A stretch of DNA of 64,000 nt from an uncultured Actinomycetota bacterium (GCA_963782485.1 CAWAJV010000007.1:596677-660676), one strand, 5' to 3'; positions 272-18,432 are shown, counted from the stretch's first letter. The notes: generated by a model from the letters alone, not told the origin. A program made the numbers and translations.

Positions 272-1222
272 TCAGGCTTCGGTGACCCCGCTCGGCCAGA
301 GGCCCGCGCGCTCGTAGATCTTCCGAGCCGGGGCGGCGTCCATCAAGCCGAGCTGCTCGAACTCCGCCATCACCTTGCGGGCGGCGTGTGCCTTCGTCGC
401 CCGCCATTGCGGGTTGCTCTGAGCCACGCGCTTGGCCTCCCCGATCTCGAGCCCAGCGGCCGCGTACGCGCGCGGATGGATCAGCCGGCTCGCGGCCGTC
501 GCGCACGAGATGGCCAGCCGGACAGAGCTCGCGTAGCGCACGGGTGCCGACGTGCTCGCCAGCTGGCGGGCGAGCTCCTCGGACGCGTAGCGCATGTGGC
601 GCGCCTCTTCGATCACGTGGATGTTCATGACGTCGCGCACGAAGGGCTGGACAGCGTCGTCCTTGACGGCCTCGCGCTGCAGGGAGTCGAGCACCTCCTC
701 GACGAAGAGCGCGGCAGCGAAGATCTCGATGGGGCGGCTGGTAGCCCGGAAGAAGCGGCCGAGGGCCAGCGTCTTGCGCCCGGGACCGTAGGCCGGGGCG
801 CCCAGCTTTTCGATCATTTTCCCGAACATGATCGAGTGGCGGCATTCGTCGGCGATCTCGGTGAGCGCGTATTGGACGTGCTGCGTCCGGGGGTCGAGCT
901 CGTAGACGTGGCGGGTCAGCATCGAGATCAGGATCAGCTCGAACCAGATGCCGACGCTGGCGATGCTGGCCGCCTCGTGGCGGGTGAGCTCGGCGCGAGC
1001 CGCGTCGCTCATCGATTCCCACAGCTCAGTGCCATAAAGCGAGCTGCGGTGCCAGGGAACGCCCGGCTTGCTCGGATCGACGGGAGCGTCCCAGTCGACC
1101 TCCACCAGGGGATCGAAGCTGGCCTTCGCCGACGAGCGCAGCAATCGAGCCGCGATCTGCTCACGGTCGGCAGGCTGGCGCGCCCCCGGCTCGCGGGTGC
1201 GACCGGATGGCGCCGGAGACAT
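272..1222 (-). CDS. AurF/CmlI-like diiron N-oxygenase family protein
   Basis: Two E..H carboxylate-bridged di-iron motifs (EIADECRHS, VIEEARHMRY) and ferritin-like helical content. Start taken at the internal Met (MSPAPSG) because the longer ORF's N-terminus is low-complexity junk and is followed by an AT-rich intergenic stretch. Confidence 0.75.
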   Translation of the reverse strand: MSPAPSGRTREPGARQPADREQIAARLLRSSAKASFDPLVEVDWDAPVDPSKPGVPWHRSSLYGTELWESMSDAARAELTRHEAASIASVGIWFELILISMLTRHVYELDPRTQHVQYALTEIADECRHSIMFGKMIEKLGAPAYGPGRKTLALGRFFRATSRPIEIFAAALFVEEVLDSLQREAVKDDAVQPFVRDVMNIHVIEEARHMRYASEELARQLASTSAPVRYASSVRLAISCATAASRLIHPRAYAAAGLEIGEAKRVAQSNPQWRATKAHAARKVMAEFEQLGLMDAAPARKIYERAGLWPSGVTEA

Positions 1223-7292: not shown

Positions 7293-8045
7293 ATGAACGT
7301 CACCATGCAATGCGGCACCGAGATGCTCGCCGGTCACGGTGGTGACGAGATCGAGACGTACGTGGCGCTCCCGGCCGGGCCAGCGGCTGACGGTCCGGTG
7401 CCGGGGGTGGTCGTGATCCACCACATGCCCGGCTTCGACGCGGCTACCAAGGAGATCACCCGCCGGTTCGCCTCGCGTGGCTACGCGGCCATCCTGCCCA
7501 ACCTGCACTACCGCGAGGCACCCGGCGCCGAAGCCGACGACGCCGCTGCCGCCAACCGGGCAGCCGGCGGGGTGCCCGACGAGAGGCTGACCGGCGATGT
7601 CCAGGCCGCCGCCGCTTACCTTCGTGGCCTGCCCGGGTCAAACGGAAAGGCGGGCACGATCGGCTACTGCTCCGGCGGGCGGCAATCCTTTCTCGCCGGC
7701 TGCACCGCCGGGGTCGACGCCGCTGTCGACTGCTACGGCGCGTTCGTCGTCGGCGACGCGCCGGAATCCTTCCCGATTGCGATGCCCTCGATCGTGCACC
7801 TGACCCCGCAGCTGGGGTGCCCGCTGCTCGGCATGTTCGGCAACGAGGACAAGGCTCCCTCGCCGGAGCAGGTCGACGTGCTCGAAGCCGCGCTGCAGGC
7901 CGCAGGCAAGGAGTACGAGTTTCACCGCTACGACAACGCCGGCCACGGCTTCTTCGCGGTCGACCGGCCCATGTACCGCCAGGCCGCGGCCACGGACGGA
8001 TGGGTCAAGATCTTCGACTTCTTCGGCCGCCACCTCGCGGCCTGA
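7293..8045 (+). CDS. Dienelactone hydrolase family protein
   Basis: Alpha/beta-hydrolase; nucleophile motif GYCSGG; C-terminal His. RBS GAGGAAG upstream of the ATG at 7293. Confidence 0.85.
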   Translation: MNVTMQCGTEMLAGHGGDEIETYVALPAGPAADGPVPGVVVIHHMPGFDAATKEITRRFASRGYAAILPNLHYREAPGAEADDAAAANRAAGGVPDERLTGDVQAAAAYLRGLPGSNGKAGTIGYCSGGRQSFLAGCTAGVDAAVDCYGAFVVGDAPESFPIAMPSIVHLTPQLGCPLLGMFGNEDKAPSPEQVDVLEAALQAAGKEYEFHRYDNAGHGFFAVDRPMYRQAAATDGWVKIFDFFGRHLAA

Positions 8046-8076
8046 GCCGCCGACCGGACCGGAAGGACGCCCCACC

Positions 8077-8352
8077 ATGTGCACGTACATCACCGAGCTC
8101 GTCACGATCGAAGGCAGCGGCAAGGGCACCGCGGGGTGGTTCGACCTCACCGACGCGAGCGTCTACGTCGATCATCCGGTGGCGGCGCAGGCCGACCACA
8201 CGCTCAACATCGACTTTCGCAATCCGGCGCGGGGGCCCGCGGCGCGCGTCGCGGTGGAGCTCACGGCAGCGTCCGCCCTGGCACTTGTCGACGCGATCCA
8301 CGCCGCGCTGGCGGCGGTCCCCGAAGGCCTGCTGGAGACCGCCCCGGCGTAG
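8077..8352 (+). CDS. Small hypothetical protein (91 aa)
   Basis: Good GC3 codon bias and tight spacing after the hydrolase gene. No identifiable domain. Confidence 0.4.
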   Translation: MCTYITELVTIEGSGKGTAGWFDLTDASVYVDHPVAAQADHTLNIDFRNPARGPAARVAVELTAASALALVDAIHAALAAVPEGLLETAPA

Positions 8353-8365
8353 CGGATCAGCCGGC

Positions 8366-9352
8366 TCAGCCGACCAGCAGCTCCGGGTTGCGCGTCTGCA
8401 CCATTCGCCGGATCCCTTCGCGCCAGGTGACCTCGGTCGGCTCGCCCACCAGCTCGCGCAGCCGGGTGACGTCAGCGGGCGTGCCTTCGATGGCCGTCGG
8501 GTCGACGGTGAACGCCGGGGTGCGCCCGGTGAGCTCGCCGAGGAAGCCGACCCACTCCTCGATCGTGACCCGCTCCGAACCGGCCCAGTTCACCGTCACC
8601 GCGGGGACAGCCGCCGCTTCCAGCAGGGCCGGCAGCGTGCGGATGATGTCGTCCTCGTGGATCAGGTGGTAGGCGCCGCCGTCGGGCGGGACCGGAATGG
8701 CCATGCCGCCCGAGAGCATCAGCAGGTGAAACCAGGGCCAGCCGCCGTTGTCGCCATAGGGAACGTTGAGCCGGGCGATGACGGTGGGCAGGTTCAACGT
8801 GCGGGCGTACGTGCGGGCAACTGCCTCGGCGGCGACCTTCGACAGCACGTAGTTCGGCATCATCTGGGTGTGGTTGTTGTCGCCGAGCGGGCTGCTCTCG
8901 GGGAGCGGCTCACCCCCCTGCGGCGCGTACACGGCAGTCGACGAGCAGTGCAGGAACGCCTTGGCCCCGGCGTAGCGCGTCATCAGCAGCCCGACCGACT
9001 CGGCATTGGCCGTCAGGTCGGCGTCGCTGTCCTTGGTCTTGGCTACCGCGAAATTGAGCACGTAGTCGGCGGACTCGGGTAGCTCATCCAGCCCCTCGCC
9101 GCTCCCGAGGTCGGCGACCACGCAGTGCACGCCCGCCTCCTCCAGGCTCGTACGGGCGGCGGCGTTCGAGAATCGGGCAGGTGCCCAGACCTCGTTGGCC
9201 AAGCCCGGAGCGGCTAGCGCCTTGGCTACGGGGAGTCCGACCTGTCCGGTCGCACCGGTGACGATGATCTTGGCGTTGTTCAGCACGCGCTCATCTTCCG
9301 ATGCCCACCCGGCAGCCTCAGCACGGGGGTCGGCTGAGGCCGCCGGCAGCAC
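8366..9352 (-). CDS. NAD-dependent epimerase/dehydratase family protein
   Basis: GxxGxxG Rossmann motif (IIVTGATGQVG) and YxxxK (YVLSK). The true start may be the GTG about 22 codons downstream of the first Met. Confidence 0.8.
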   Translation of the reverse strand: MLPAASADPRAEAAGWASEDERVLNNAKIIVTGATGQVGLPVAKALAAPGLANEVWAPARFSNAAARTSLEEAGVHCVVADLGSGEGLDELPESADYVLNFAVAKTKDSDADLTANAESVGLLMTRYAGAKAFLHCSSTAVYAPQGGEPLPESSPLGDNNHTQMMPNYVLSKVAAEAVARTYARTLNLPTVIARLNVPYGDNGGWPWFHLLMLSGGMAIPVPPDGGAYHLIHEDDIIRTLPALLEAAAVPAVTVNWAGSERVTIEEWVGFLGELTGRTPAFTVDPTAIEGTPADVTRLRELVGEPTEVTWREGIRRMVQTRNPELLVG

Positions 9353-9457
9353 GTTGTCGTAGGCATGTGTCCAACGTCGGACCGTGCCCTAGCTGCCCGG
9401 GATGCTGTGCCTGCGGGGTGACTGTGGGCCGGGCGAACCGGTGGGCCCCGGGCAGCG

Positions 9458-9495
9458 AAAAGGGGCCGTCCCGCGTGAGAGCGCGGGACGGCCCC
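9458..9495 (-). terminator. Intrinsic terminator of the electron-transfer operon
   Basis: 14-bp perfect GC stem (GGGGCCGTCCCGCG / CGCGGGACGGCCCC) with a 5-nt loop, followed by TTTT on the minus strand immediately downstream of the ferredoxin stop. Confidence 0.6.
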
Positions 9496-9517
9496 TCGGC
9501 CGCCGACGGATGGGCCG

Positions 9518-9754
9518 TCAGCCAGGCACCACCTTGAGTGCCCGCTTCGGACAGGCGGCAACCGCGTCTGCCACTGCGCCGGCGAGCTCGTCGGGTATCG
9601 CCGACCCGCGCGGGAGGCGTGCGACGGGGTAACCCCAATCATCGGGCTCGAGCAGTTCCGGCACGAGCTCCATGCAGAGCCCGCGCCCGTCGCAGGCGGT
9701 CCAATCGAGGTGCAACCGCTGGGTTCTGGTCGGGGTCGCGGTCGAACCGCTCAT
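9518..9754 (-). CDS. Ferredoxin (single-cluster 3Fe-4S/4Fe-4S type, 78 aa)
   Basis: C-terminal 78 aa of the long ORF with a CxxG..C...CP ferredoxin pattern (ACDGRGLC ... AACP). ATGA overlap with the upstream NuoF-like gene. Confidence 0.75.
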   Translation of the reverse strand: MSGSTATPTRTQRLHLDWTACDGRGLCMELVPELLEPDDWGYPVARLPRGSAIPDELAGAVADAVAACPKRALKVVPG

Positions 9755-11008
9755 CGCCGTCCTCCTGCCACGCAGCCACCTTCGCGGTGGGCTTCGATGT
9801 CGTTCGAAAACGTCATGAGCGCGCTGCGCGCCAGCCGGACGGTGCCGTCCGGGTGGTGACACGCGCCGCGGCCGGCGACCAGTCCGGCCATGCGCTGAAC
9901 TTCGGCTATCGCATCCGGATCGGCTGGCCACCCGGGTTGACCGACCATTCGCCCGAACGCGGCGGCCAGCCGGGGCAACCCGTTGACGCACGGCCCGCAC
10001 TGCCCCGCGCTCTCGTCGGCGAGGTAGTCGAGAATGAGTGAGGTCTGCACGAGTCCGCAGCTCGCCATCGGGAGTGCCGCGACCACCCCGGCACCCGGCG
10101 AGGCGCCGAAGGGCGCCAGCCCGGCCCGGGAGACCGGAGCACGTGCAGCGGCCGGCCACGGGACCCACGCACCGTGATAGCCGCCGATCAGCACCGCCTG
10201 CACGTCCGTCGACGGTCCACCGGCGCTGGCCAGCAGCTGCTCCAGCGGGACTCCGTACTCGAGCTCGTAGACCCCGGGATGGACGACGGCCCCGCTGACG
10301 CTCGCCAGGAACGTGCCCGGTTCGTCGGCGGTACCGGCCAAGCGGAACCACTGCGGACCCATGCGGGCCGCGAGCGCGAGCTGCGCCAGCGTCTCCACGT
10401 TGTGGACGAGCGTCGGCCGGCCGCGCACGCCGGCGGTGACGACCATCCGAGCCTTGTCGCGCGGCAACGGGAGGCCACCGGAAAGCCTCGACGCCACGGC
10501 CGATTCTTCGCCGGAGATGAAGGTGTCAGGCGCTGCGACCAAGGCGACATCGATGCGATCGACCCCACCGCGCTCGATCAGAGCCGCCCGCAGCGCGCCG
10601 ATGAGAATCCTCTGGAACGTAAGCGAAAGCTTGGGCAGCGCCGACCGCGTCGGCCAGCAACTGCAGCCCGTCGAAGACCAGATGCGGCGCGTGGGTCAGC
10701 AGGTAGCGATCCTTCGACGACAGCGGCTCGCCTTCGGCCCCGTTAGCCACCACGACGGCGCGGCGCCCGGCCGCCACGGCCGCCAGCTTGCGTGCCGACG
10801 GGAAGCCGGCGCCTCCGCGGCCGGTGAGACCGCTGTCGGCCATCAAACGGATCAGCTGGTCCGAGCCGGTGACCCACGGAATCGGGCCGACCCGCTCGAG
10901 ATGCGCGCCGAACTCGAGCCAGCCGGCGGCGAGCAGGCGCTTCGTACCCGTCCCAGCCGACGGTCCCGTGCCGAATCCCATGACCGGCTCACGTATCGCC
11001 GCGTTCAT
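9751..11008 (-). pseudogene. NuoF-like NADH-binding FMN/4Fe-4S flavoprotein (51-kDa subunit family), interrupted by a +1 frameshift near 10604-10610
   Basis: N-terminal ORF carries GRGGAGFP and VVANGAEGEP motifs. C-terminal ORF carries ISGEESA, NVET and the SAGQCGPC Fe-S motif. The two frames join at GAT-T-CTC. Confidence 0.7.
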
Positions 11009-11604
11009 CGCGCTCTCCCTGCCAAGCCGACGGAGTTCCTGACCAGCGGGCGTCGCACCTGGCCGTGCTCGGCGTAGCGCGGTGCGAGCCTCCAGCTGAC
11101 CGCTGCGGCGATGGCGAACGCACAGGCTCCGGCGATCACGCGCATCCAGAGCGTGCCGCTGTCGGTGCCGTTGCCAAGCGCGTGGGCGAAGGCGACGGGC
11201 CAGCACAGATACGCCAGCCAATGCACCGCTCGCCACGCGCGCTCAGGCATGCGCCCCCGCAGCAGGCTGGTCGCCACCAAGGTCACGATCAACTCGAGGG
11301 CCAGGGTCCCGAGGCCCTGCCAGAACGGCCGGTACGACCCGAGGAACGGCACGAAGACGTCGGTCACGTTCACGCCGGCCTTGCTGTCGAGCAGCAGGGT
11401 CGTGATGTGGACGCCGATCAGGACGACGGCCAGCAGGCTCGCGTTGCGGTGCACCATGGCGACCGCGAAGCGCGGCAGCCCGAGGATCTGCCGGCCGGAA
11501 CGGCTCGCGATGCCGAGGGCGACGACGATCGTCAGCAGCACGAGGGAGACGACCCCCGTCCCCCGTGCGGCGTACCAGAGCCCGGCGTCAGTGACGGTGC
11601 TCAT
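11005..11604 (-). CDS. Ferric-reductase-like (MsrQ/YedZ-type) haem-b transmembrane protein
   Basis: 199 aa, six predicted TM helices with conserved His pairs. ATGA coupling to both neighbours. Confidence 0.65.
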   Translation of the reverse strand: MSTVTDAGLWYAARGTGVVSLVLLTIVVALGIASRSGRQILGLPRFAVAMVHRNASLLAVVLIGVHITTLLLDSKAGVNVTDVFVPFLGSYRPFWQGLGTLALELIVTLVATSLLRGRMPERAWRAVHWLAYLCWPVAFAHALGNGTDSGTLWMRVIAGACAFAIAAAVSWRLAPRYAEHGQVRRPLVRNSVGLAGRAR

Positions 11605-12554
11605 GACGGGGTCTCCTGCGGGAATCCGGCGATGCAGACGACCTGGGCCGACGCGTCGGCGCTCACGAGACGGGCCGCGAAACCCCGTTCGGCGAGCCAG
11701 GCCGGTGCCGCCGCACCGAGGATCAGCGCGGCCGTGCTGAGGGCATTGGCCTGAGCGCAGGCCGGCGCGCAGACGCTCGCGGTGCGCCAGACCTGCGCCG
11801 CCGGGCGGCAGGAGCGCGGATCGAGCACGTGATGCATCTGCTGCTCACCCGCCATCCACTGCCGCCCTTGCGTGCTGCTGGTGGCGATCGCCGACTCGGG
11901 GGCCAGCCTCACGACGATCGACGGGTCGCCCGGCCGGTCCTGAACCAGCACCTCCCAGCCTGATCCGGGGACCGGTCCCGCGGTCGCGATGTCTCCCCCG
12001 AGCGCCATCAACACGCCGACCGGCAACTCGCGCGCGATCTCAGCCGCGATCAGGTCGGCGGTGAGCGCCTTGCCGGTCGCGCCGAGGTCCAGCCGCATGC
12101 CGGCGGGAACCGTCAGCGTCGCGCCATCAAGGACCACGTGGCGCCAGCTCGGGGCATGGCGCACCCGCAGGGTCGCCCCGCCCGGGCGGAGCGGTTGAGG
12201 CTCGCCCATCTCGGCCCAGTCCCGGTCGTAACCGGCATCGACCAGAGCGTTGCCGATGGTGGGGGTGACGAGCCCATCCGTCGCGCGCGCGGCGTCGAGC
12301 GCGACCCCGATCAGCTGCGCCAGCAGCGGGCTCACGGAAACCGGCCGGCCGCTCGAGCGCGCCATCAGCGTCATCAGCTCGGAGTCGGGACGAAACCGGC
12401 TGCACGCCAGGTCGACCCCGGCGATGACCCGCTCGGCGATCTCCCGGGCGGCAGGCAGCACAGCCGCGTCCGTCACCACCAGGCGCGCGGTGGTGCTCCA
12501 CACCGGCCATTGCGCCGTGGTGGGGGTCAGCGGCAGCGTCTCATTGAGCGGCAT
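11601..12554 (-). CDS. apbE: FAD:protein FMN transferase (ApbE family)
   Basis: ApbE-like N-terminal core (WSTTARLVV ... DLACSRFRPDSELMTL) and Mg/FAD-binding C-terminal region. Start at the Met with an RBS (GGAGGG). No signal peptide of its own. Confidence 0.8.
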   Translation of the reverse strand: MPLNETLPLTPTTAQWPVWSTTARLVVTDAAVLPAAREIAERVIAGVDLACSRFRPDSELMTLMARSSGRPVSVSPLLAQLIGVALDAARATDGLVTPTIGNALVDAGYDRDWAEMGEPQPLRPGGATLRVRHAPSWRHVVLDGATLTVPAGMRLDLGATGKALTADLIAAEIARELPVGVLMALGGDIATAGPVPGSGWEVLVQDRPGDPSIVVRLAPESAIATSSTQGRQWMAGEQQMHHVLDPRSCRPAAQVWRTASVCAPACAQANALSTAALILGAAAPAWLAERGFAARLVSADASAQVVCIAGFPQETPS

Positions 12555-12555
12555 G

Positions 12556-12834
12556 TCAGGACCCTCCGGAGGTGGCAGCGGGTGTCGTGCTGGTACTCGA
12601 CGAGCTGCTGGCCGTCGGGGCGCTCGATGACGCACTGGACGTCGGCGTGCTGGATGAGGTGCTGGATGAGGTGCTGGAGCTGGGCGTGCTGGTCGAGGTG
12701 CTCGCGGCCGACGTCGTGGAATTCGTGCTCTGACTGGCGAGAACGCCGGTGGCGGTCGCCCCCACGGCGGCAACGGCAGCCAAACCGGCCGTTGCCACGG
12801 CAATCTTGCGGCGTCCGCTTTCCCTGACGGTCAC
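12556..12834 (-). CDS. Tat-signal peptide followed by a poly-Ser/Thr low-complexity protein (92 aa); possibly the detached N-terminus of a secreted ApbE
   Basis: Twin-arginine signal (SGRRKIAVATAGLAAV). The S/T tract is encoded by 12-bp tandem repeats. Its stop lies 1 nt before the ApbE ATG. Confidence 0.45.
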   Translation of the reverse strand: MTVRESGRRKIAVATAGLAAVAAVGATATGVLASQSTNSTTSAASTSTSTPSSSTSSSTSSSTPTSSASSSAPTASSSSSTSTTPAATSGGS

Positions 12835-12848
12835 GTCTGCCTCCCTGC

Positions 12849-12872
12849 TTGATTAGAGGCCCGATTGATTGG
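12849..12872. promoter_or_regulatory. Direct repeats TTGATTAGAGG-ccc-GATTGATTGG in the divergent promoter between the electron-transfer operon and the response regulator
   Basis: Seen in sequence. The TGATTG motif recurs at 15457-15520. Confidence 0.35.
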
Positions 12873-13053
12873 AGCGACTGGTGCGCTTCGGTGTGGCCCT
12901 GCCCCGAGCATTGGCAGCCGGGCTGTGGGGCAGCTGTGCGCGGTCCCTGGACTTGCTTTGCCGGGCCGCGACCAGGGATGCTCGCCCCGTTACACAGCCA
13001 AGTCACAGGTGTCGCACAGTCCCTAAGGAAGGTGGCGGCCGAGTCTGTTACCT

Positions 13054-13794
13054 ATGAGGACCCAATCCCCCCTTGCTACCGCCCAGCCCGAGCTGCAGCG
13101 CCCGGGCGGCGGTCCCGTGCGCGCGCTCGTCGTCGACGACGAAGCGACCCTCGCCGAGCTGCTGTCCATGGCGCTCCGCTACGAGAACTGGGACGTGCGG
13201 ACGGCTGGGGACGGGCTGAGCGCGATCCGCACCGCGCGCGAGTTCAAGCCGGACGTCGTCATCCTCGACGTGATGCTGCCCGACCTGGACGGGCTCGAGG
13301 TGCTGCGCCGGCTGCACGCCGACTTCCCGGCGCTGCCGGTGCTCTTCCTCACCGCGAAGGACGCTGTGGAGGACCGCATCGCCGGCCTCACGGCGGGCGG
13401 AGACGATTACGTCACCAAGCCGTTCAGCCTCGAGGAGGTGGTGGCCCGGGTCCGCGGCCTGCTGCGCCGCGCTGCCGTAGCCACGAAGACCGAGTCGCGC
13501 CTGGAGGTCGGCGACCTCGTCATGGACGAGGACAGCCGCGAGGTCGAGCGCGCCGGTGAGCTGATCAACCTGACGACCACCGAGTTCGAGCTGCTGCGCT
13601 TCTTCATGCGCAACCCGCGCCGGGTGCTGTCGAAGGCGCAGATTCTCGACCGGGTCTGGCAGTACGACTTCGGCGGCCAGGCCAACGTGGTCGAGCTCTA
13701 CGTCTCCTACCTCCGCAAGAAGATCGACGCCGGCCGCGAGCCGATGATCCACACCGTGCGGGGCGCCGGGTACGTCCTGAAACCGGCACGCTGA
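13054..13794 (+). CDS. OmpR-family response regulator
   Basis: Receiver domain (VVDDE, D at ILDVMLPD, T..K) and winged-helix output domain. Confidence 0.9.
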   Translation: MRTQSPLATAQPELQRPGGGPVRALVVDDEATLAELLSMALRYENWDVRTAGDGLSAIRTAREFKPDVVILDVMLPDLDGLEVLRRLHADFPALPVLFLTAKDAVEDRIAGLTAGGDDYVTKPFSLEEVVARVRGLLRRAAVATKTESRLEVGDLVMDEDSREVERAGELINLTTTEFELLRFFMRNPRRVLSKAQILDRVWQYDFGGQANVVELYVSYLRKKIDAGREPMIHTVRGAGYVLKPAR

Positions 13795-13801
13795 GCTTCT
13801 G

Positions 13802-15448
13802 GTGACACCGCGGCGGCACATCCCCCGGCCCCGATTTCGGCGGCCGTGGACGCTGCGCGGGCGCCTCCTGGCGGTGCTGCTCGGGCTGCTCGCGCTCGTA
13901 TGCGTGATCATCGGTTTCGTCAGCGTGACAGCGGTCAACCATCAGATCCTCGGCCAGGTGGACCGCCAGCTGGTCAGCGCGGGAGACCGCTCCATCAGAG
14001 CGAATGGCGCCGACGGCCACGACGGCCATGACGACGGCGAGTCGCCGGGAGGAAACGGTTCGCCCGGGTTCCTCTTCGTGCCCGGCCAAGCGGCCGGCAC
14101 GCTGGGCGCGCTGCGCAGCGGCGAGACCATCCTGGGCGCCGGCGTCCTCACCGGGTTCAACACGTCGACCCCCGTCCCGTCCGACGACTACGAGACGCTG
14201 GCCGGCGTGCCTGCGGACAGCAAGCCGCACACCGTCGCTCTCGACGGGCTCGGGGAGTACCGCGTCGTGGTCACCGCCGACGGTGACGGCGACGGCACCA
14301 TGCTGATCACCGGCCTTCCCCTCAAGGACGCCAACGCGACGATCCTGCGGCTCACCTGGGTCATCGTCCTGGTCAGTGCGATCGGGCTGGTCGGGGCGGC
14401 CGTCGCGGGCAGCTTCATCGTGCGGCTCACGCTGCGCCCGCTGCGGCGGGTGGCGGAGACCGCGACCCGCGTTTCCAAGCTCCGCCTCGATCGCGGCGAG
14501 GTGGCGCTTCGCGAACGCGTGCCGGAGGCCGACACCGACACCCGCACGGAGGTCGGCCAGGTCGGTGCGGCACTGAACAGCCTGCTCGGCCACGTCTCGA
14601 CCGCGCTGACCGCCCGCCAGGCCAGTGAGACGCGGGTGCGCCAGTTCGTCGCCGATGCGAGCCATGAGCTGCGCACGCCGCTGGCCGCCATCCGCGGTTA
14701 CGCCGAACTCACCCGGCGGACCGGCGACGACCTCCCGGAGGACATCACCTACGCGATGGACCGGGTGGAGTCCGAAGCCCGGCGCATGACCGGACTCGTC
14801 GAGGACCTTCTCCTGCTGGCCCGGCTCGACGCCGGGCGCCCCATCGACCGGGCGACCGTCGATCTCACGGCGCTCGTGATCGATGCCGTGAGCGATGCGC
14901 ATGCGGCCGGCCCCCAGCATCCGGTGCATCTGAACCTGCCGGAGGAGCCTATCGAGATCACCGGCGATCCGGCCCGGCTGCACCAGGTGCTCACCAACCT
15001 GCTGACGAACGCCCGCACCCACACGGCTCCCGGCACGCGCATCGCGGTGACGCTGCGCCTCGACGATGCTCCTGGGAACGCCGGGGAGCCTGCGGTTGTC
15101 GTCGAGGTCGCTGACGAGGGACCAGGCATCCCGCCTGCCCTGCTCCCCCACATCTTCGAGCGCTTCGCCCGGGCCGACACGTCCCGTTCCCGGATCGCCG
15201 GCAGCACCGGTCTCGGCCTGGCCATCGTCACGGCGGTCGTGGGCGCCCACGGCGGCAGCGTCGACGTGCGCACCCAGCCCGGTCACACCGTCTTCGCCGT
15301 GCGCCTCCCCGTCGCCGGTCGCGCCGCTGCGGAGGCCCCGACCGCGGCCCAGCAGCAGAACCGAGCAGGTCATCCTGGGAGCAGCCTCGACCCCGGCTGC
15401 GAAACGCCGGTCCAGGACCCTCCTCGAGATCGCGCTAGAACGCCATGA
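13802..15448 (+). CDS. Sensor histidine kinase (two TM helices, periplasmic loop, HAMP, HisKA, HATPase)
   Basis: H-box ASHELRTPL, N box LLTNARTHT, G boxes DEGPGIP and GSTGLGLAIV. GTG start 7 nt after the regulator stop. Confidence 0.9.
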   Translation: MTPRRHIPRPRFRRPWTLRGRLLAVLLGLLALVCVIIGFVSVTAVNHQILGQVDRQLVSAGDRSIRANGADGHDGHDDGESPGGNGSPGFLFVPGQAAGTLGALRSGETILGAGVLTGFNTSTPVPSDDYETLAGVPADSKPHTVALDGLGEYRVVVTADGDGDGTMLITGLPLKDANATILRLTWVIVLVSAIGLVGAAVAGSFIVRLTLRPLRRVAETATRVSKLRLDRGEVALRERVPEADTDTRTEVGQVGAALNSLLGHVSTALTARQASETRVRQFVADASHELRTPLAAIRGYAELTRRTGDDLPEDITYAMDRVESEARRMTGLVEDLLLLARLDAGRPIDRATVDLTALVIDAVSDAHAAGPQHPVHLNLPEEPIEITGDPARLHQVLTNLLTNARTHTAPGTRIAVTLRLDDAPGNAGEPAVVVEVADEGPGIPPALLPHIFERFARADTSRSRIAGSTGLGLAIVTAVVGAHGGSVDVRTQPGHTVFAVRLPVAGRAAAEAPTAAQQQNRAGHPGSSLDPGCETPVQDPPRDRARTP

Positions 15449-15456
15449 TTGCCGGA

Positions 15457-15520
15457 ATCTCGCAACTGTCCCGCCGGGTTTCCGTGCTGATCGGCCCTAT
15501 TGCGAAATGTGATTGCCGGA
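15457..15520. promoter_or_regulatory. Two roughly 20-bp direct repeats (TGATTGCCGGAAtcTCGcAA / TGATTGCCGGAAatacTCGAA) about 57 bp apart
   Basis: Seen in sequence, in a lower-GC spacer downstream of the kinase gene and upstream of the CBS membrane-protein gene. Confidence 0.35.
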
Positions 15521-15613
15521 AATACTCGAAGAGCCGGACCGGTTGCGGTCACTACAACGTTGTGGTGGCCGGCCGGCCGGTCCACAGCCCAAGCTTCCTC
15601 GAACGGAACGCCG

Positions 15614-16945
15614 ATGCACCTGCACAAGCCCCACCTCCGCTCCTCCGGCTCCCAGCCGAGCACTGACCTGGACTCCCGCTCCGGTCAGCGACGCGAGCCA
15701 GACCGCCCCCCGCGCCGGCCGCGCGTCACCTTCCGCCCCTCTGCGGTGTTCACGTGGCTCTTCGTCACCCTCGTCATGGTGACCGGCCCGCTGCAGCTCG
15801 CCGTCCCGGATCAGGGCAGCTCGGCGTACTTCTCGGCCGCAGGGCTGGGTGGCCTGGCCGTCGTCGGAGCGCTCATCGTGGCCGAGCTCCGGCGCGCCCG
15901 GCGCATGGCGCAGGCCGGGCTCGACGTGGAGCGCGTCGAGGTGGGCCTGTTGCGAGCCCGCACGGTCGCTACCGGCGAGGTTTCGACCCCCGGAGGACTC
16001 CGGCGCGTCAGCTGGGCAGGTCCCCTGACGCTGGCCGCGACGGCGGCGGTCCTTGCCGCAGCCGGCGGACTCCTGCTCCTATCGGGTTCGCACGGTTTCC
16101 GGCTGCTGGCTGCTTCCGCGCTGTTCTCCGCGATCGGTATCGCCTCACTCGCGATCGCTGACCTGATCCCGGCCCCGGGCTCGCCCGGCAGCCAGCTGAT
16201 CTTCGCGCGCGCCTGGCGGCGCAGCGGGCGGCGCGACACCGCGCTCGCCCCGACCGCCCGTGCTGGTGTCATCAGTGGCTGGGCGTTGATCGTGGCCGGG
16301 TTCGTGCTGGTGACGTTCGTGAGCCTGGCCGGGCTCTGGGTCGGCCTCATCGGGGCTGCTGTCGTCGCCGGCTCGCGGCTCATGCTGGCCGGCGCGCGCA
16401 CCCGAGAGCGCCTCACCGGGCTCCGCGCCACTGACGTGATGTCGGCCGCCCCGCCGGAGGTGTCGTCCTTCGCCACGGCCGGTGTCGCATTCTCGGATGT
16501 GGCCCTGCCCAGCCGGGCCGACCTGCTCATCGTTCGCGACCCGGACGGCAGCCTCGGCGGGATCGTCTCCACCCAAGCACTCGCCGCCGTCCCGGGCGAT
16601 GATCGCGAGCTGGTCCGCGTGCGGCGCCTCGCGATCGCGGCGGGCAACATCCCGATCGTCGGCCCCGACGAGCCGATGGAGCAAGTACTCGAGCAGCTGG
16701 CGGCGCGCCCGCTCGCCGGGGTCGCACTCGTCGTCGATGAGGCGGCCGTCGAGTCCTTCGCGGGAGTGCCGCAGGTCGTCGGCATCATCACCCCCGCTGA
16801 CGTCGCTCGAACCGTCTCTCTCATGGATGCGGCCAACCCGGGCCGGCGCGGCGGCGGTCCCAAGAGGCCCGGTGGGTTCGGTGGATCCGGTGGCTCCGGT
16901 GGCGATACCGGCAACCCCTGGGCGCGCAAGAATCCCTTCGGGTAG
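15614..16945 (+). CDS. Membrane protein with a C-terminal CBS-domain pair
   Basis: Start at the internal Met (MHLHKP) just after a low-GC spacer. Multiple TM helices, then two CBS-like segments. The Gly-rich tail overlaps the start of the repeat array. Confidence 0.65.
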   Translation: MHLHKPHLRSSGSQPSTDLDSRSGQRREPDRPPRRPRVTFRPSAVFTWLFVTLVMVTGPLQLAVPDQGSSAYFSAAGLGGLAVVGALIVAELRRARRMAQAGLDVERVEVGLLRARTVATGEVSTPGGLRRVSWAGPLTLAATAAVLAAAGGLLLLSGSHGFRLLAASALFSAIGIASLAIADLIPAPGSPGSQLIFARAWRRSGRRDTALAPTARAGVISGWALIVAGFVLVTFVSLAGLWVGLIGAAVVAGSRLMLAGARTRERLTGLRATDVMSAAPPEVSSFATAGVAFSDVALPSRADLLIVRDPDGSLGGIVSTQALAAVPGDDRELVRVRRLAIAAGNIPIVGPDEPMEQVLEQLAARPLAGVALVVDEAAVESFAGVPQVVGIITPADVARTVSLMDAANPGRRGGGPKRPGGFGGSGGSGGDTGNPWARKNPFG

Positions 16946-16966
16946 GGGCTTTCTCGGCCCGCCGCC

Positions 16967-17199
16967 GGCGACCCGCGCTCGGACTCGCTCCGCTCGCCCG
17001 AGTCACGATCCCCCATACCCATGGTCGGCGACCCGCGCTCGGACTCGCTCCGCTCGCCCGAGTCACGATCCCCTCCATACCCATGGTCGGCGACCGCGCT
17101 CGGACTCGCTCCGCTCGCCCGAGTCACGATCCCCTCCATACCCATGGTCGGCGACCCGCGCTCGGACTCGCTCCGCTCGCCCGAGTCACGATCCCCTCC
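16967..17199 (+). repeat. Tandem array of about 3.8 copies of a 61-62-bp repeat unit (GGCGACCCGCGCTCGGACTCGCTCCGCTCGCCCGAGTCACGATCCCCTCCATACCCATGGTC)
   Basis: Copies at 16967-17026, 17027-17088, 17089-17149 (1-nt deletion) and 17150-17199 (truncated). Each unit has an internal GACTCG/CGAGTC stem and ends in CCATGG. Confidence 0.85.
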
Positions 17200-17203
17200 G
17201 ACG

Positions 17204-17230
17204 CCCGGGCAGGGCCCATCCCTGCCCGGG
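17204..17230 (+). other. Strong GC hairpin (11-bp stem CCCGGGCAGGG, loop CCCAT) immediately after the repeat array
   Basis: Seen in sequence; no U-tract. Possible factor-independent terminator or structural element. Confidence 0.35.
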
Positions 17231-17316
17231 CGCACCACCCGCACTCGCAACGCTTGATCGACCCTGCACGTTCTGCCACTCCTGCTGGCCGTCTCTTTGA
17301 CCGGAAGGTCTGACAC

Positions 17317-18432
17317 ATGCATGTTTCCCTCTGGGCCTGGGCGGGCTTCGCTGTATTCGTGACGGCGGCCCTGATCCTGGACCTGCGCAACCACCGCAAC
17401 CCCCGCGCCGTCGAGTTCAGGGAAGCCCTGCGCTGGTCGGGCTTCTGGCTCGCGATCGGCTTCGGCTTCGCGGGGCTGCTCTGGCTCACGCACGGCGGCA
17501 CGGCGGCCGCCGAGTACACGTCGGCGTACCTGCTCGAGAAGAGTCTCGCCGTCGACAACCTGTTCGTCTTCGCCTTGATTTTCAGCTACTTCAAGGTGCC
17601 GAGGGAGTACGAGCACCGGGTGCTGTTCCTCGGCGTGGTCGGTGCCCTCGTGTTCCGGGCGATCTTCCTCGCGGCCGGCGTCGCCGTGGTCAGCGCGTTC
17701 GAGTGGGTCTTCTTCGGTTTCGGCGCGTTCCTCGTCTACACCGCTCTGAAGCTGGCGAAGGACGGTGGCGAGCCTGACGTCGACCCCTCCAAGAGCCTGG
17801 CCGTCCGGTTGCTGCGGCGCCTGTTCCCGGTCGCAGACGAGTACTCCGGCCAGAAGATGCTGGTGCGCCGCGCCGGCGTGCTGACGGCCACCCCGCTGCT
17901 GGCGGTCGTCGTTGCCATCGAAGCGGCTGACATCCTGTTCGCCGTCGACAGCGTGCCAGCGGTGCTCGCCGTGAGTGACGACCTGTTCATCGTCTACACG
18001 TCGAACGCCCTCGCGGTGCTCGGCCTGCGCGCGCTCTACTTCTGCCTCTCCGGCCTGCTCACCCGTTTCCACCTGCTCAACAAGGGGCTGGCCGTCGTCC
18101 TCGGCTTCGTCGGACTGAAGATGCTGATGCAGGCCACGCAGCACTACGTACACGGCTTCCCGACCGTGCCGACCGCACTCTCGCTCGCTGTCATCGTTCT
18201 GGTGCTGGCCGGGGCCGTCGTCGGTTCCCTGCTCTTGCCGAAGCCGGACGACGCGGGTGAGCTGGGTGGGACCGAACCGCTGGCCGACGGATCGGTCGGT
18301 GCGCGAGAGCGGGACGATCTCGGTTCCCGAGCCGTTGTCGGAGCGGGATATGGAGGCGATCGCGACTGGGACGAGCGCAGCGAGTCACAGCGCGGGTCGC
18401 TGACCACGAAGCTGGAAGGTGATCGGCGATGA
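17317..18432 (+). CDS. TerC-family integral membrane protein
   Basis: Hallmark TerC segments (YLLEKSLAVDNLFVFALIF; two homologous halves). RBS GGAAGG. The C-terminal about 30 aa are encoded by a reverse copy of the 62-bp repeat. Confidence 0.85.
   Translation: MHVSLWAWAGFAVFVTAALILDLRNHRNPRAVEFREALRWSGFWLAIGFGFAGLLWLTHGGTAAAEYTSAYLLEKSLAVDNLFVFALIFSYFKVPREYEHRVLFLGVVGALVFRAIFLAAGVAVVSAFEWVFFGFGAFLVYTALKLAKDGGEPDVDPSKSLAVRLLRRLFPVADEYSGQKMLVRRAGVLTATPLLAVVVAIEAADILFAVDSVPAVLAVSDDLFIVYTSNALAVLGLRALYFCLSGLLTRFHLLNKGLAVVLGFVGLKMLMQATQHYVHGFPTVPTALSLAVIVLVLAGAVVGSLLLPKPDDAGELGGTEPLADGSVGARERDDLGSRAVVGAGYGGDRDWDERSESQRGSLTTKLEGDRR
18344..18406 (-). repeat. Reverse-orientation single copy of the 62-bp repeat (about 80% identity) at the 3' end of the TerC gene
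   Basis: The reverse complement aligns to the array unit. Confidence 0.6.

Follow-up and report, generated by a model that had tools for sequence, protein, structure and literature searches.

We analysed a 64,000-nucleotide stretch of DNA (the window) from an uncultured Actinomycetota bacterium (GCA_963782485.1 CAWAJV010000007.1:596677-660676; GC content ~70 %). The window contains an operon of five minus-strand genes (12834..9518) that, judging from sequence comparisons, we consider fairly likely to encode a self-contained transmembrane conduit carrying electrons from NADH to the outside of the cell. The system would be of the MsrQ-like, flavinylation-associated kind and would hold its flavin mononucleotide (FMN) on an exported small peptide. 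In the direction of transcription, the genes code for a small Ser/Thr-rich open reading frame (ORF), the FMN transferase ApbE, a ferric-reductase-domain (FRD) haem protein, a NuoF-like protein and a ferredoxin. A sequence-only reading of this DNA had already proposed a conduit from NADH across the membrane to a flavinylated extracytoplasmic acceptor. The comparative evidence described below (domains, co-occurrence, invariant His residues and an encoded candidate target) fits that proposal.

Gene set, conservation and redox proteins

The five genes are translationally coupled. Three of the junctions are ATGA overlaps of 4 nt each, and the junction between the small ORF and apbE is TGAcATG, with a spacer of 1 nt. 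The gene positions and operon structure given in the sequence-only reading hold, as do its three 4-nt overlaps; the 1-nt overlap that it listed last is in fact this spacer. It had also placed a clean intrinsic terminator at the end of the operon, and folding bears this out: the hairpin has a free energy of -55.8 kcal/mol (z = -6.4), and none of 200 shuffles folded as well. The first two U of the UUUU run close the stem. A simple consensus scan for terminators and promoters gave no match and misses the hairpin at 9497..9460 because it requires at least five T, and an Rfam scan of 9000-18000 gave no match. Searches with hidden Markov models agreed with the earlier domain assignments, giving Pfam matches for ApbE, Ferric_reduct, the NuoF-like domains and the ferredoxin (Table 1).

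With the NuoF-like protein as the query, a search of one genome per species gave at least 598 stretches of species-representative genomes that encode a relative of this protein. We took the 80 best non-redundant loci and placed the window proteins on them. A ferredoxin gene directly follows the NuoF-like gene in 80/80 loci. The FRD, NuoF-like and ferredoxin genes are collinear in 76/80, the exceptions being contig ends or rearrangements, and apbE joins them in a contiguous set of four in 62/80. The genes therefore co-occur almost universally, and the neighbourhood check proposed with the original reading comes out in its favour. The hosts include Pseudonocardiaceae, Micromonosporaceae, Nocardia, Streptomyces, Kitasatospora, Microbacteriaceae and Streptosporangiaceae, together with Acidimicrobiales, Solirubrobacterales, Gaiellaceae, a few Dormibacterota metagenome-assembled genomes (MAGs) and one Acidobacteria MAG. 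Two records recur below. L001, a MAG of an uncultured Actinomycetota, is the closest related locus. L082 is an independent 4.3-kb assembly from run ERR11571143 that we found by exact look-up of the 199-aa haem protein; it is 99.93 % identical to window 13328..9014 over 4315 bp.

For the NuoF-like protein we found more than 7,500 homologues. Its alignment to Thermus Nqo1 and mycobacterial NuoF covers almost the full length (E=4e-42). The protein keeps the flavin loop GRGGAGFP and the acidic NADH loop GAEGEP, both aligned with the Nqo1 residues, and its invariant positions are G63, G65, G66, G68, F69, P70 and E92-P95. Of the four Cys ligands of cluster N3, three align (C337, C340 and C383). The protein scores 180 bits with the NuoF equivalog TIGR01959, for which the cut-off is 558, and falls below the cut-offs of the other NuoF models. 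Its gene never adjoins other complex I genes (NuoE/G) in the 80 loci. By these comparisons, the protein is no NuoF and would work like the NADH-oxidising module of complex I. The ferredoxin encoded next to it has only three Cys (C21-x5-C27 ... C68-P69), which are conserved in 79 to 80 of 80 homologues. We take this pattern, C-x5-C...C-P with the central Cys missing, to be that of the [3Fe-4S] single-cluster type.

The haem protein contains four His residues (His52, His66, His128 and His141) that are invariant in 75/75 homologues. Absence of bis-His haem ligands from this protein had been named as an observation that would speak against the conduit, and this check, too, favours it. The pairs are spaced 14 and 13 residues apart, presumably the spacing of the two bis-His haem sites in NOX-family proteins. 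We built an AlphaFold2 model on 35 sequences (mean pLDDT 75, pTM 0.69) and found five long helices (3-34, 45-72, 94-114, 121-142 and 152-173), in line with five hydropathy peaks; the six membrane spans assigned earlier are not supported. The His pairs sit on helices 2 and 4. A Foldseek search of the PDB with this model returned STEAP1, STEAP2, the Streptococcus pneumoniae NADPH oxidase (SpNOX) and the transmembrane domain of NOX5 as top matches, with probabilities of 0.98-1.0, TM-scores of 0.46-0.59 and E-values of only ~0.04-0.2.

Arg-rich loops (35-45 and 115-125) and a basic C-terminal tail mark the probable cytoplasmic side of the haem protein. This would make His52/128 the inner and His66/141 the outer site of two predicted haems b, with the short N-terminus outside. 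Invariant residues on the predicted outer face lie at the N-terminus (W10 and R14) and in the outer loop (D73, P86, F87, Y91, R92 and W95), and they form a candidate docking surface for the flavin tail. The predicted outer face as a whole (residues 1-14 and 73-95) is more conserved than most helices.

The small protein and its C-terminal motif

ApbE moves FMN from FAD onto the last Ser/Thr of the motif D-x-x-[S/T]-G-A-[S/T] (PMC12052999). The minimal motif has 7 residues, and an engineered flavin-tag works best when placed at either end of a protein. Changing the motif Asp to Ala has little effect, and G-to-A or A-to-V changes cut the yield by half (PMC12052999). Unstructured C-terminal extensions of FMN_red proteins have been found by experiment to be flavinylated (Huang et al. 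2024; PMC11334425), and cytosolic ApbEs without signal peptides exist, for example in Klebsiella (PMC12052999). The ApbE encoded in the window is predicted to be cytoplasmic and to lack an N-terminal signal peptide, because its PF02424 match starts at residue 22 (profile position 4 of 266), its N-terminus is hydrophilic, and the in-frame sequence upstream has a GC content at third codon positions (GC3) of 0.41, as expected of non-coding DNA.

The small ORF matches no family in Pfam or NCBIfam. Its product has a twin-arginine N-region (SGRRKIAV) followed by an A/G/V-rich hydrophobic segment, and a disordered, S/T-rich linker of 58 aa leads from there to the C-terminus ...AATSGGS-COOH. We found the same architecture upstream of apbE or the FRD gene in ~65 of ~75 evaluable loci. 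The RR pair stands directly before the A/G/V-rich segment (mean hydropathy ~2.0) in 44/59 small-ORF loci, and VLA, AYA or AHA sites follow the hydrophobic segment in Pseudonocardiales- and Micromonosporales-type proteins. The RR and the weakly hydrophobic segment resemble a twin-arginine translocation (Tat) signal, which suggests that the protein may be exported. Across loci, the low-complexity tail is 38-153 residues long (median 72) and is composed of S/T/G/P/A/N to 70-97 %.

The tail ends in a conserved motif, which takes the form [A/V]-[T/V]-S-G-[G/A]-S-stop. Among the 65 loci with an upstream ORF, 47 have the strict ending [ST]G[GA][ST], and the number rises to 57 when close variants are included. 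In these 57 loci the last residue is always Ser, position -1 is Gly/Ala in 56, -2 is Gly in 49 and -3 is Ser/Thr in 55. Among 8546 ORFs of 60 aa or longer in the related loci, only 58 end in the motif, most of them these small ORFs; the 64-kb window has 2 such ORFs among 585. Within the locus itself, the small ORF is the only one of seven encoded proteins with [ST]G[AG][ST]. The motif is kept in 8 further loci that have no adjacent apbE and in which the small ORF directly precedes the FRD gene. In 4 Streptosporangiaceae loci it is internal (VATSGGSG...), ~30 aa before the stop.

These Streptosporangiaceae proteins (L025 ~1045, L051 ~4233, L053 ~4069 and L061 ~4275) carry TSG[GS]SG internally and run on for ~30 residues past the motif to a His-rich end (..H.RHV..YHD[S/N]), possibly a metal site.

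Codon usage indicates that the motif is conserved at the protein level. The two Gly positions are encoded by GGC, GGA, GGG and GGT across loci (GGA GGG in the window), Ala at -1 by GCG, GCA and GCC, and Ser by TCG, TCC, TCA, TCT and AGC. A GGAG/GAGG core occurs in the last 18 nt of the small ORF in 17/57 loci and is absent from 40/57. The following start codon overlaps the small ORF by 1 nt at one extreme and lies ~80 nt from its stop at the other. It is because the codons vary synonymously, because most loci lack a core resembling a Shine-Dalgarno sequence and because the start-codon distance varies that we assign the conservation to the protein.

Two other origins of the motif were considered and rejected. 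In the window, GGA GGG overlaps the GGAGG before apbE, so the motif might have been a Shine-Dalgarno artefact. We discarded it as the principal explanation: each of the two Gly positions uses all four codons, the core is limited to the loci counted above, the flanking Ser/Thr are equally conserved, and the motif is also kept at internal positions and 30-80 nt ahead of the following gene. The small ORF might also have been a detached or recoded signal peptide of ApbE, joined to it by read-through or frameshift fusion. This was rejected as well; a stop is always present, the frame relation and spacing vary, and in 8 loci the ORF precedes the FRD gene without apbE.

A GC3 coding test was uninformative for the small ORF because its S/T codons make a second frame equally GC3-rich. 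The public gene calls for L082 omit the ORF and give a 53-aa antisense ORF instead (596..757, minus strand), and those for L001 include an orthologue of 86 aa. Annotation pipelines and Pfam-based surveys are blind to this ORF, which gene callers miss or mis-call.

The C-terminus of the small protein is thus, at the level of sequence motifs, itself an ApbE motif, a point that had not been seen in the sequence-only reading. That reading had suggested a search for a flavinylation target among the encoded secreted proteins, and the Ser/Thr-rich ORF with its C-terminal SGGS supplies the candidate. It looks like a natural flavin-tag on a disordered leash, one that follows the core [S/T]-G-[A/G]-[S/T] rule and departs from the Asp rule.

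Regulatory genes, repeats and neighbours

A two-component system is encoded divergently from the operon. Neither its regulator nor its kinase reaches an NCBIfam equivalog cut-off. The regulator is 94 % identical to the one in the syntenic L001. An OmpR-type pair lies within 6 kb of the operon in 40/80 loci, and in 9 loci the regulator itself has a clear orthologue (identity of 60 % or more).

The sequence-only reading had pointed to TGATT-type repeats as the control site. Such repeats do exist, and the TTGATT copies at 12849 and 12865 are two of only six in 64 kb. The stretch is absent, however, from the corresponding intergenic region of L001, in which a different set of direct repeats, CTGTG-N6-CTGTG-N6-CTGTG, is conserved. 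For this reason the CTGTG repeats are the stronger candidate for the site bound by the OmpR-type regulator, and the adjacent system probably controls the operon through them. A relaxed search for NTGTG-N6 triple repeats gave 15 matches in 0.96 Mb of related loci, where ~0.04 would be expected by our own estimate from base composition, made without a shuffle control. These triplets cluster around the operon and its two-component genes in L001, L013, L014, L016, L029, L038, L061 and L068. The (C/T)TGTG-N6 repeats lie at 6033 in L001, 3317-3354 in L013, 3536-3573 in L014 and 1614-1651 in L016, and the Amycolatopsis loci carry another copy on the far side of the kinase gene.

Beside the kinase gene, a 481-aa ORF (15500..16945) with no Pfam match looks membrane-associated, has a Gly-rich C-terminus and is absent from L001. 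The intergenic stretch 16966..17199 holds 3.8 tandem copies of a 61-bp unit (97 % match) upstream of a gene for a TerC-family membrane protein (17317..18432); the repeat has no Rfam match at the gathering score. On the other side of the operon, synteny with L001 extends through genes for an epimerase, a DUF6295 protein and a dienelactone hydrolase (7300..9352 in the window, 11368..13313 in L001). Between the ferredoxin and epimerase genes, L001 has a YkcB_C glycosyltransferase-like gene and a gene for a 204-aa protein without assignment, and the window has neither.

Table 1. Features of the operon and its divergent neighbours (window coordinates; functions are predictions from sequence).
Feature	Position	Strand	Details
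Intrinsic terminator	9458..9497	-	16-bp GC-rich stem (9497..9460), 6-nt loop, UUUU run
Small ferredoxin	9518..9754	-	78 aa; Fer4_15, E=5e-12
NuoF-like NADH-binding FMN/Fe-S protein	9751..11008	-	418 aa once extra base removed; Complex1_51K E=3e-30, SLBB, NADH_4Fe-4S E=5e-14
Single inserted T breaking the NuoF-like frame	10604..10604	-	GATTC[T]CATC; absent from L082
MsrQ-like/ferric-reductase-domain di-haem b protein	11005..11604	-	199 aa; PF01794, 33.1 bits (cut-off 28)
FAD:protein FMN transferase ApbE	11601..12554	-	317 aa; PF02424, E=2e-44
Small secreted/anchored protein, proposed ApbE substrate	12556..12834	-	92 aa; GTG start; GGGAGG Shine-Dalgarno sequence 6 nt upstream
Codons for terminal S-G-G-S, candidate flavinylation site (FMN on last Ser)	12559..12570	-	motif conservation
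Two TTGATT copies 16 nt apart, upstream of the small-ORF ribosome-binding site	12849..12870	+	motif scan
CTGTG-N6-CTGTG-N6-CTGTG direct repeats, 11-bp spacing, divergent intergenic region	12993..13019	-	conserved in L001
OmpR/PhoB-family response regulator, divergent from the operon	13054..13794	+	Response_reg + Trans_reg_C
Membrane histidine kinase	13802..15448	+	HAMP, HisKA, HATPase_c; extracytoplasmic loop ~140 aa

Electron path, rival explanations and known systems

The operon suggests the following path. In the cytoplasm, the NuoF-like protein would oxidise NAD(P)H at its FMN and pass electrons through its Fe-S cluster to the three-Cys ferredoxin. The ferredoxin would reduce the inner haem b (His52/His128) of the membrane protein, and the electron would cross to the outer haem b (His66/His141) and on to an FMN that ApbE had attached through a phosphoester bond to the C-terminal Ser of the small protein. 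Because ApbE appears to lack a signal peptide, flavinylation in the cytoplasm followed by Tat export would be the simplest route. The peptide might afterwards be anchored or released, with its flavin either held at the outer face of the cytochrome or swinging on the linker to an external acceptor. Flavinylation, Tat export, the direction of electron flow and the terminal acceptor are all steps that we infer. We propose more tentatively, as a possibility that is rather less than even, that the small ORF represents an unrecognised class of ApbE substrate: a domain-less, disordered protein that would receive FMN on its C-terminal Ser from a cytoplasmic ApbE, leave the cell by Tat export and act as a tethered or released shuttle from the outer haem through the actinobacterial wall. 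Earlier surveys, which called for a signal peptide on ApbE or a known flavin domain, would have missed such a class almost entirely.

Several observations weigh against this path. The window motif has Ala in place of the Asp at -6, a position at which Asp is present in 9/57 loci and Gln, His or Val in others, and it has Gly at -1, where the canonical residue is Ala. Ser is a poorer ApbE acceptor than Thr (PMC12052999), and we found no reported natural substrate that lacks a flavin-binding fold and ends on the acceptor residue itself. If ApbE works in the cytoplasm and the disordered tail is exported, the Tat pathway would have to carry an unfolded peptide with its flavin already attached. In the NuoF-like protein, the first Cys of cluster N3 is Ala (ESAGQCGPC); two further near-invariant Cys, C317 (80/81 homologues) and C412 (77/81), could substitute for the missing ligand. 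The NuoF-like gene is frameshifted in this assembly, with the frame switching near 10604. Finally, with crude ORF calling, no recurrent gene for a terminal acceptor or reductase was found within ±6 kb of the 80 loci. A crude all-against-all clustering of the neighbouring ORFs over the same range found no MsrP, VIT1, FMN_bind or cytochrome gene, and only the two-component genes recur.

The departures from the canonical motif would be explained if the conduit were real and the small ORF were no ApbE substrate, its C-terminus serving instead in cytochrome docking, processing or translational coupling, with ApbE acting on an FMN_bind-type protein encoded elsewhere in the genome. Asp and Ala are indeed missing from the motif in most members, GGAGG-like sequence covers the Gly codons in 17/57 loci, 8 loci have the small ORF without an adjacent apbE, and an FMN_bind gene is typical of MsrQ-like clusters (PMC8238504). 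We nevertheless think this unlikely, as every motif codon varies synonymously, 40/57 loci have no core of the Shine-Dalgarno type, and the motif is kept even 30 aa from the stop; moreover, neither FMN_bind nor another recurrent gene stands in the neighbourhoods of the 80 loci, and short terminal tags are sufficient for ApbE (PMC12052999). Slightly less improbable, though still doubtful in our view, is that the module serves, in the manner of MsrQ, as the electron supply of one specific reductase outside the cytoplasm whose gene lies elsewhere (such as an MsrP-like molybdoenzyme, or a ferric/cupric reductase for metal uptake), with the flavin-peptide as an adaptor only and no general or extracellular outlet. 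In public annotation the homologues appear as 'sulfoxide reductase heme-binding subunit YedZ/MsrQ', and VIT1 iron transporters are associated with some MsrQ-like clusters (PMC8238504). A link to metals would also suit the His-rich tail (H.RHV..YHD) past the motif in the Streptosporangiaceae variants and the best NCBIfam match of the kinase, which is a sub-threshold match to a heavy-metal sensor family. The kinase stays below every equivalog cut-off, however, and no MsrP, VIT1 or other acceptor gene recurs near the operon. A NOX-like oxidase, which would pass electrons from the outer haem or the tethered flavin to O2 and form extracellular superoxide or peroxide for signalling or antagonism, is improbable. 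The haem protein does share its fold and His pattern with NOX and SpNOX, and a flavinylated multi-FMN protein of Streptomyces has been reported to use O2 as acceptor (review PMC12052999), but we found no specific evidence for such an activity, and NOX chemistry has no need of a conserved flavin-tag and ApbE.

The frameshift bears on whether the system is alive in this genome at all. Were it genuine, the operon would be the remnant of a recent pseudogene. The deposited assembly does contain the extra base, its gene call covers only a 231-aa C-terminal fragment, and L082 differs from the window at two other positions and may come from a different strain. All differences between the two records are nevertheless small: two substitutions in apbE, both synonymous third-position changes by our own count, and the one base, where the window reads GATTC-T-CATC and L082 reads GATTCCATC. 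In L082 the NuoF-like gene is intact at 418 codons. Homologues align straight through the frame junction, the lesion is single, and the window gene retains every family-invariant residue. The most closely related records are MAGs from long reads, a type of assembly in which single-base indels would be a common error. Since a near-identical allele is intact and the invariant residues are kept, we regard the lesion as an assembly error or a very recent strain variant and the gene, on this comparison, as no decayed pseudogene; a dead system is quite unlikely. The sequence-only reading had named a dead NuoF-like gene as grounds for abandoning the conduit, and this check also comes out in favour of the proposal.

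We compared the proposed conduit with described systems. Méheust et al. 2021 (eLife) reported 1797 "MsrQ-like" flavinylation clusters, mostly from Actinobacteria, and noted in one sentence, without experiments, that 31 of them include a NuoF-like (PF10589) protein, suggesting an NAD(P)H donor (PMC8238504). The sequence-only reading had not recognised the gene combination and had taken the NuoF-like donor side to be undescribed; with these 31 clusters on record, the latter view is not supported. The present locus falls under their definition of an MsrQ-like cluster (a PF01794 gene clustered with apbE, FMN_bind, DUF3570 or DUF2271), as its PF01794 and PF02424 genes overlap by 4 nt. Their survey also required ApbE, FMN_bind, DUF3570 or DUF2271 to have a predicted signal peptide or lipobox (PMC8238504). 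This locus does not pass that filter: its ApbE is signal-less, it has no FMN_bind, DUF3570 or DUF2271 gene, and the signal is on the small ORF. The filter probably accounts for the difference between 31 clusters and the at least 598 stretches in our scan. Like those clusters (PMC8238504), the locus combines a PF01794 di-haem membrane protein with apbE, and both groups are mainly actinobacterial. Theirs typically have an FMN_bind protein, whereas here a domain-less peptide ending in SGGS accompanies a signal-less ApbE and a dedicated ferredoxin is always present. In the literature that we searched, we found no experimental follow-up on MsrQ-like clusters with a NuoF-like gene and no mention in this context of the ferredoxin, of a domain-less protein with a C-terminal motif or of a signal-less ApbE. 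The gene combination has thus been known in outline since 2021, and the undescribed part appears to be the small-protein flavin carrier.

Other systems share individual elements with the operon. E. coli MsrPQ with Fre also relies on a haem-b FRD-family membrane protein, which links a cytoplasmic flavin reductase with an extracytoplasmic partner that receives the electrons; here no MsrP is nearby, the donor would be the NuoF-like protein with ferredoxin rather than Fre or quinol, and the proposed partner is a flavinylated peptide. NOX, SpNOX and STEAP match in fold and in bis-His pairs spaced 14 and 13, but they have a fused FAD/NAD domain in place of two separate NuoF- and ferredoxin-related proteins, and six helices rather than five. 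The engineered flavin-tag (Tong et al. 2021, cited in PMC12052999) likewise shows that ApbE needs no more than a short, unstructured motif at a terminus with the acceptor Ser/Thr as its last residue; it is artificial, whereas the natural small protein proposed here would have no functional element besides its tag. The C-terminal extensions of FMN_red proteins (PMC11334425) are also short unstructured terminal ApbE motifs, but these fold back onto a flavin-binding domain. In Listeria extracellular electron transfer (Ndh2, EetA/B, PplA and FmnB) and in NQR/RNF, electrons from NADH similarly reach an extracytosolic ApbE-flavinylated protein. The carriers there are quinone/EetAB or NqrB/D/E, in contrast to the di-haem FRD protein here, and their flavoproteins have folded FMN_bind domains, with an extracytosolic ApbE (FmnB).

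Extracytosolic flavinylation is emerging as a major alternative to cytochromes for bacterial electron export, and the actinobacterial MsrQ-like systems are uncharacterised. The five genes described here form a compact unit that is open to testing, and its NADH input is defined by the NuoF-like protein and the ferredoxin. The locus suggests that nature already uses the minimal flavin-tag devised by engineers. If the proposal is true, the substrates of ApbE would extend past folded domains, cytoplasmic flavinylation could supply an exported carrier, and hundreds of soil Actinomycetota would gain an uncounted route for extracellular or envelope electron transfer.

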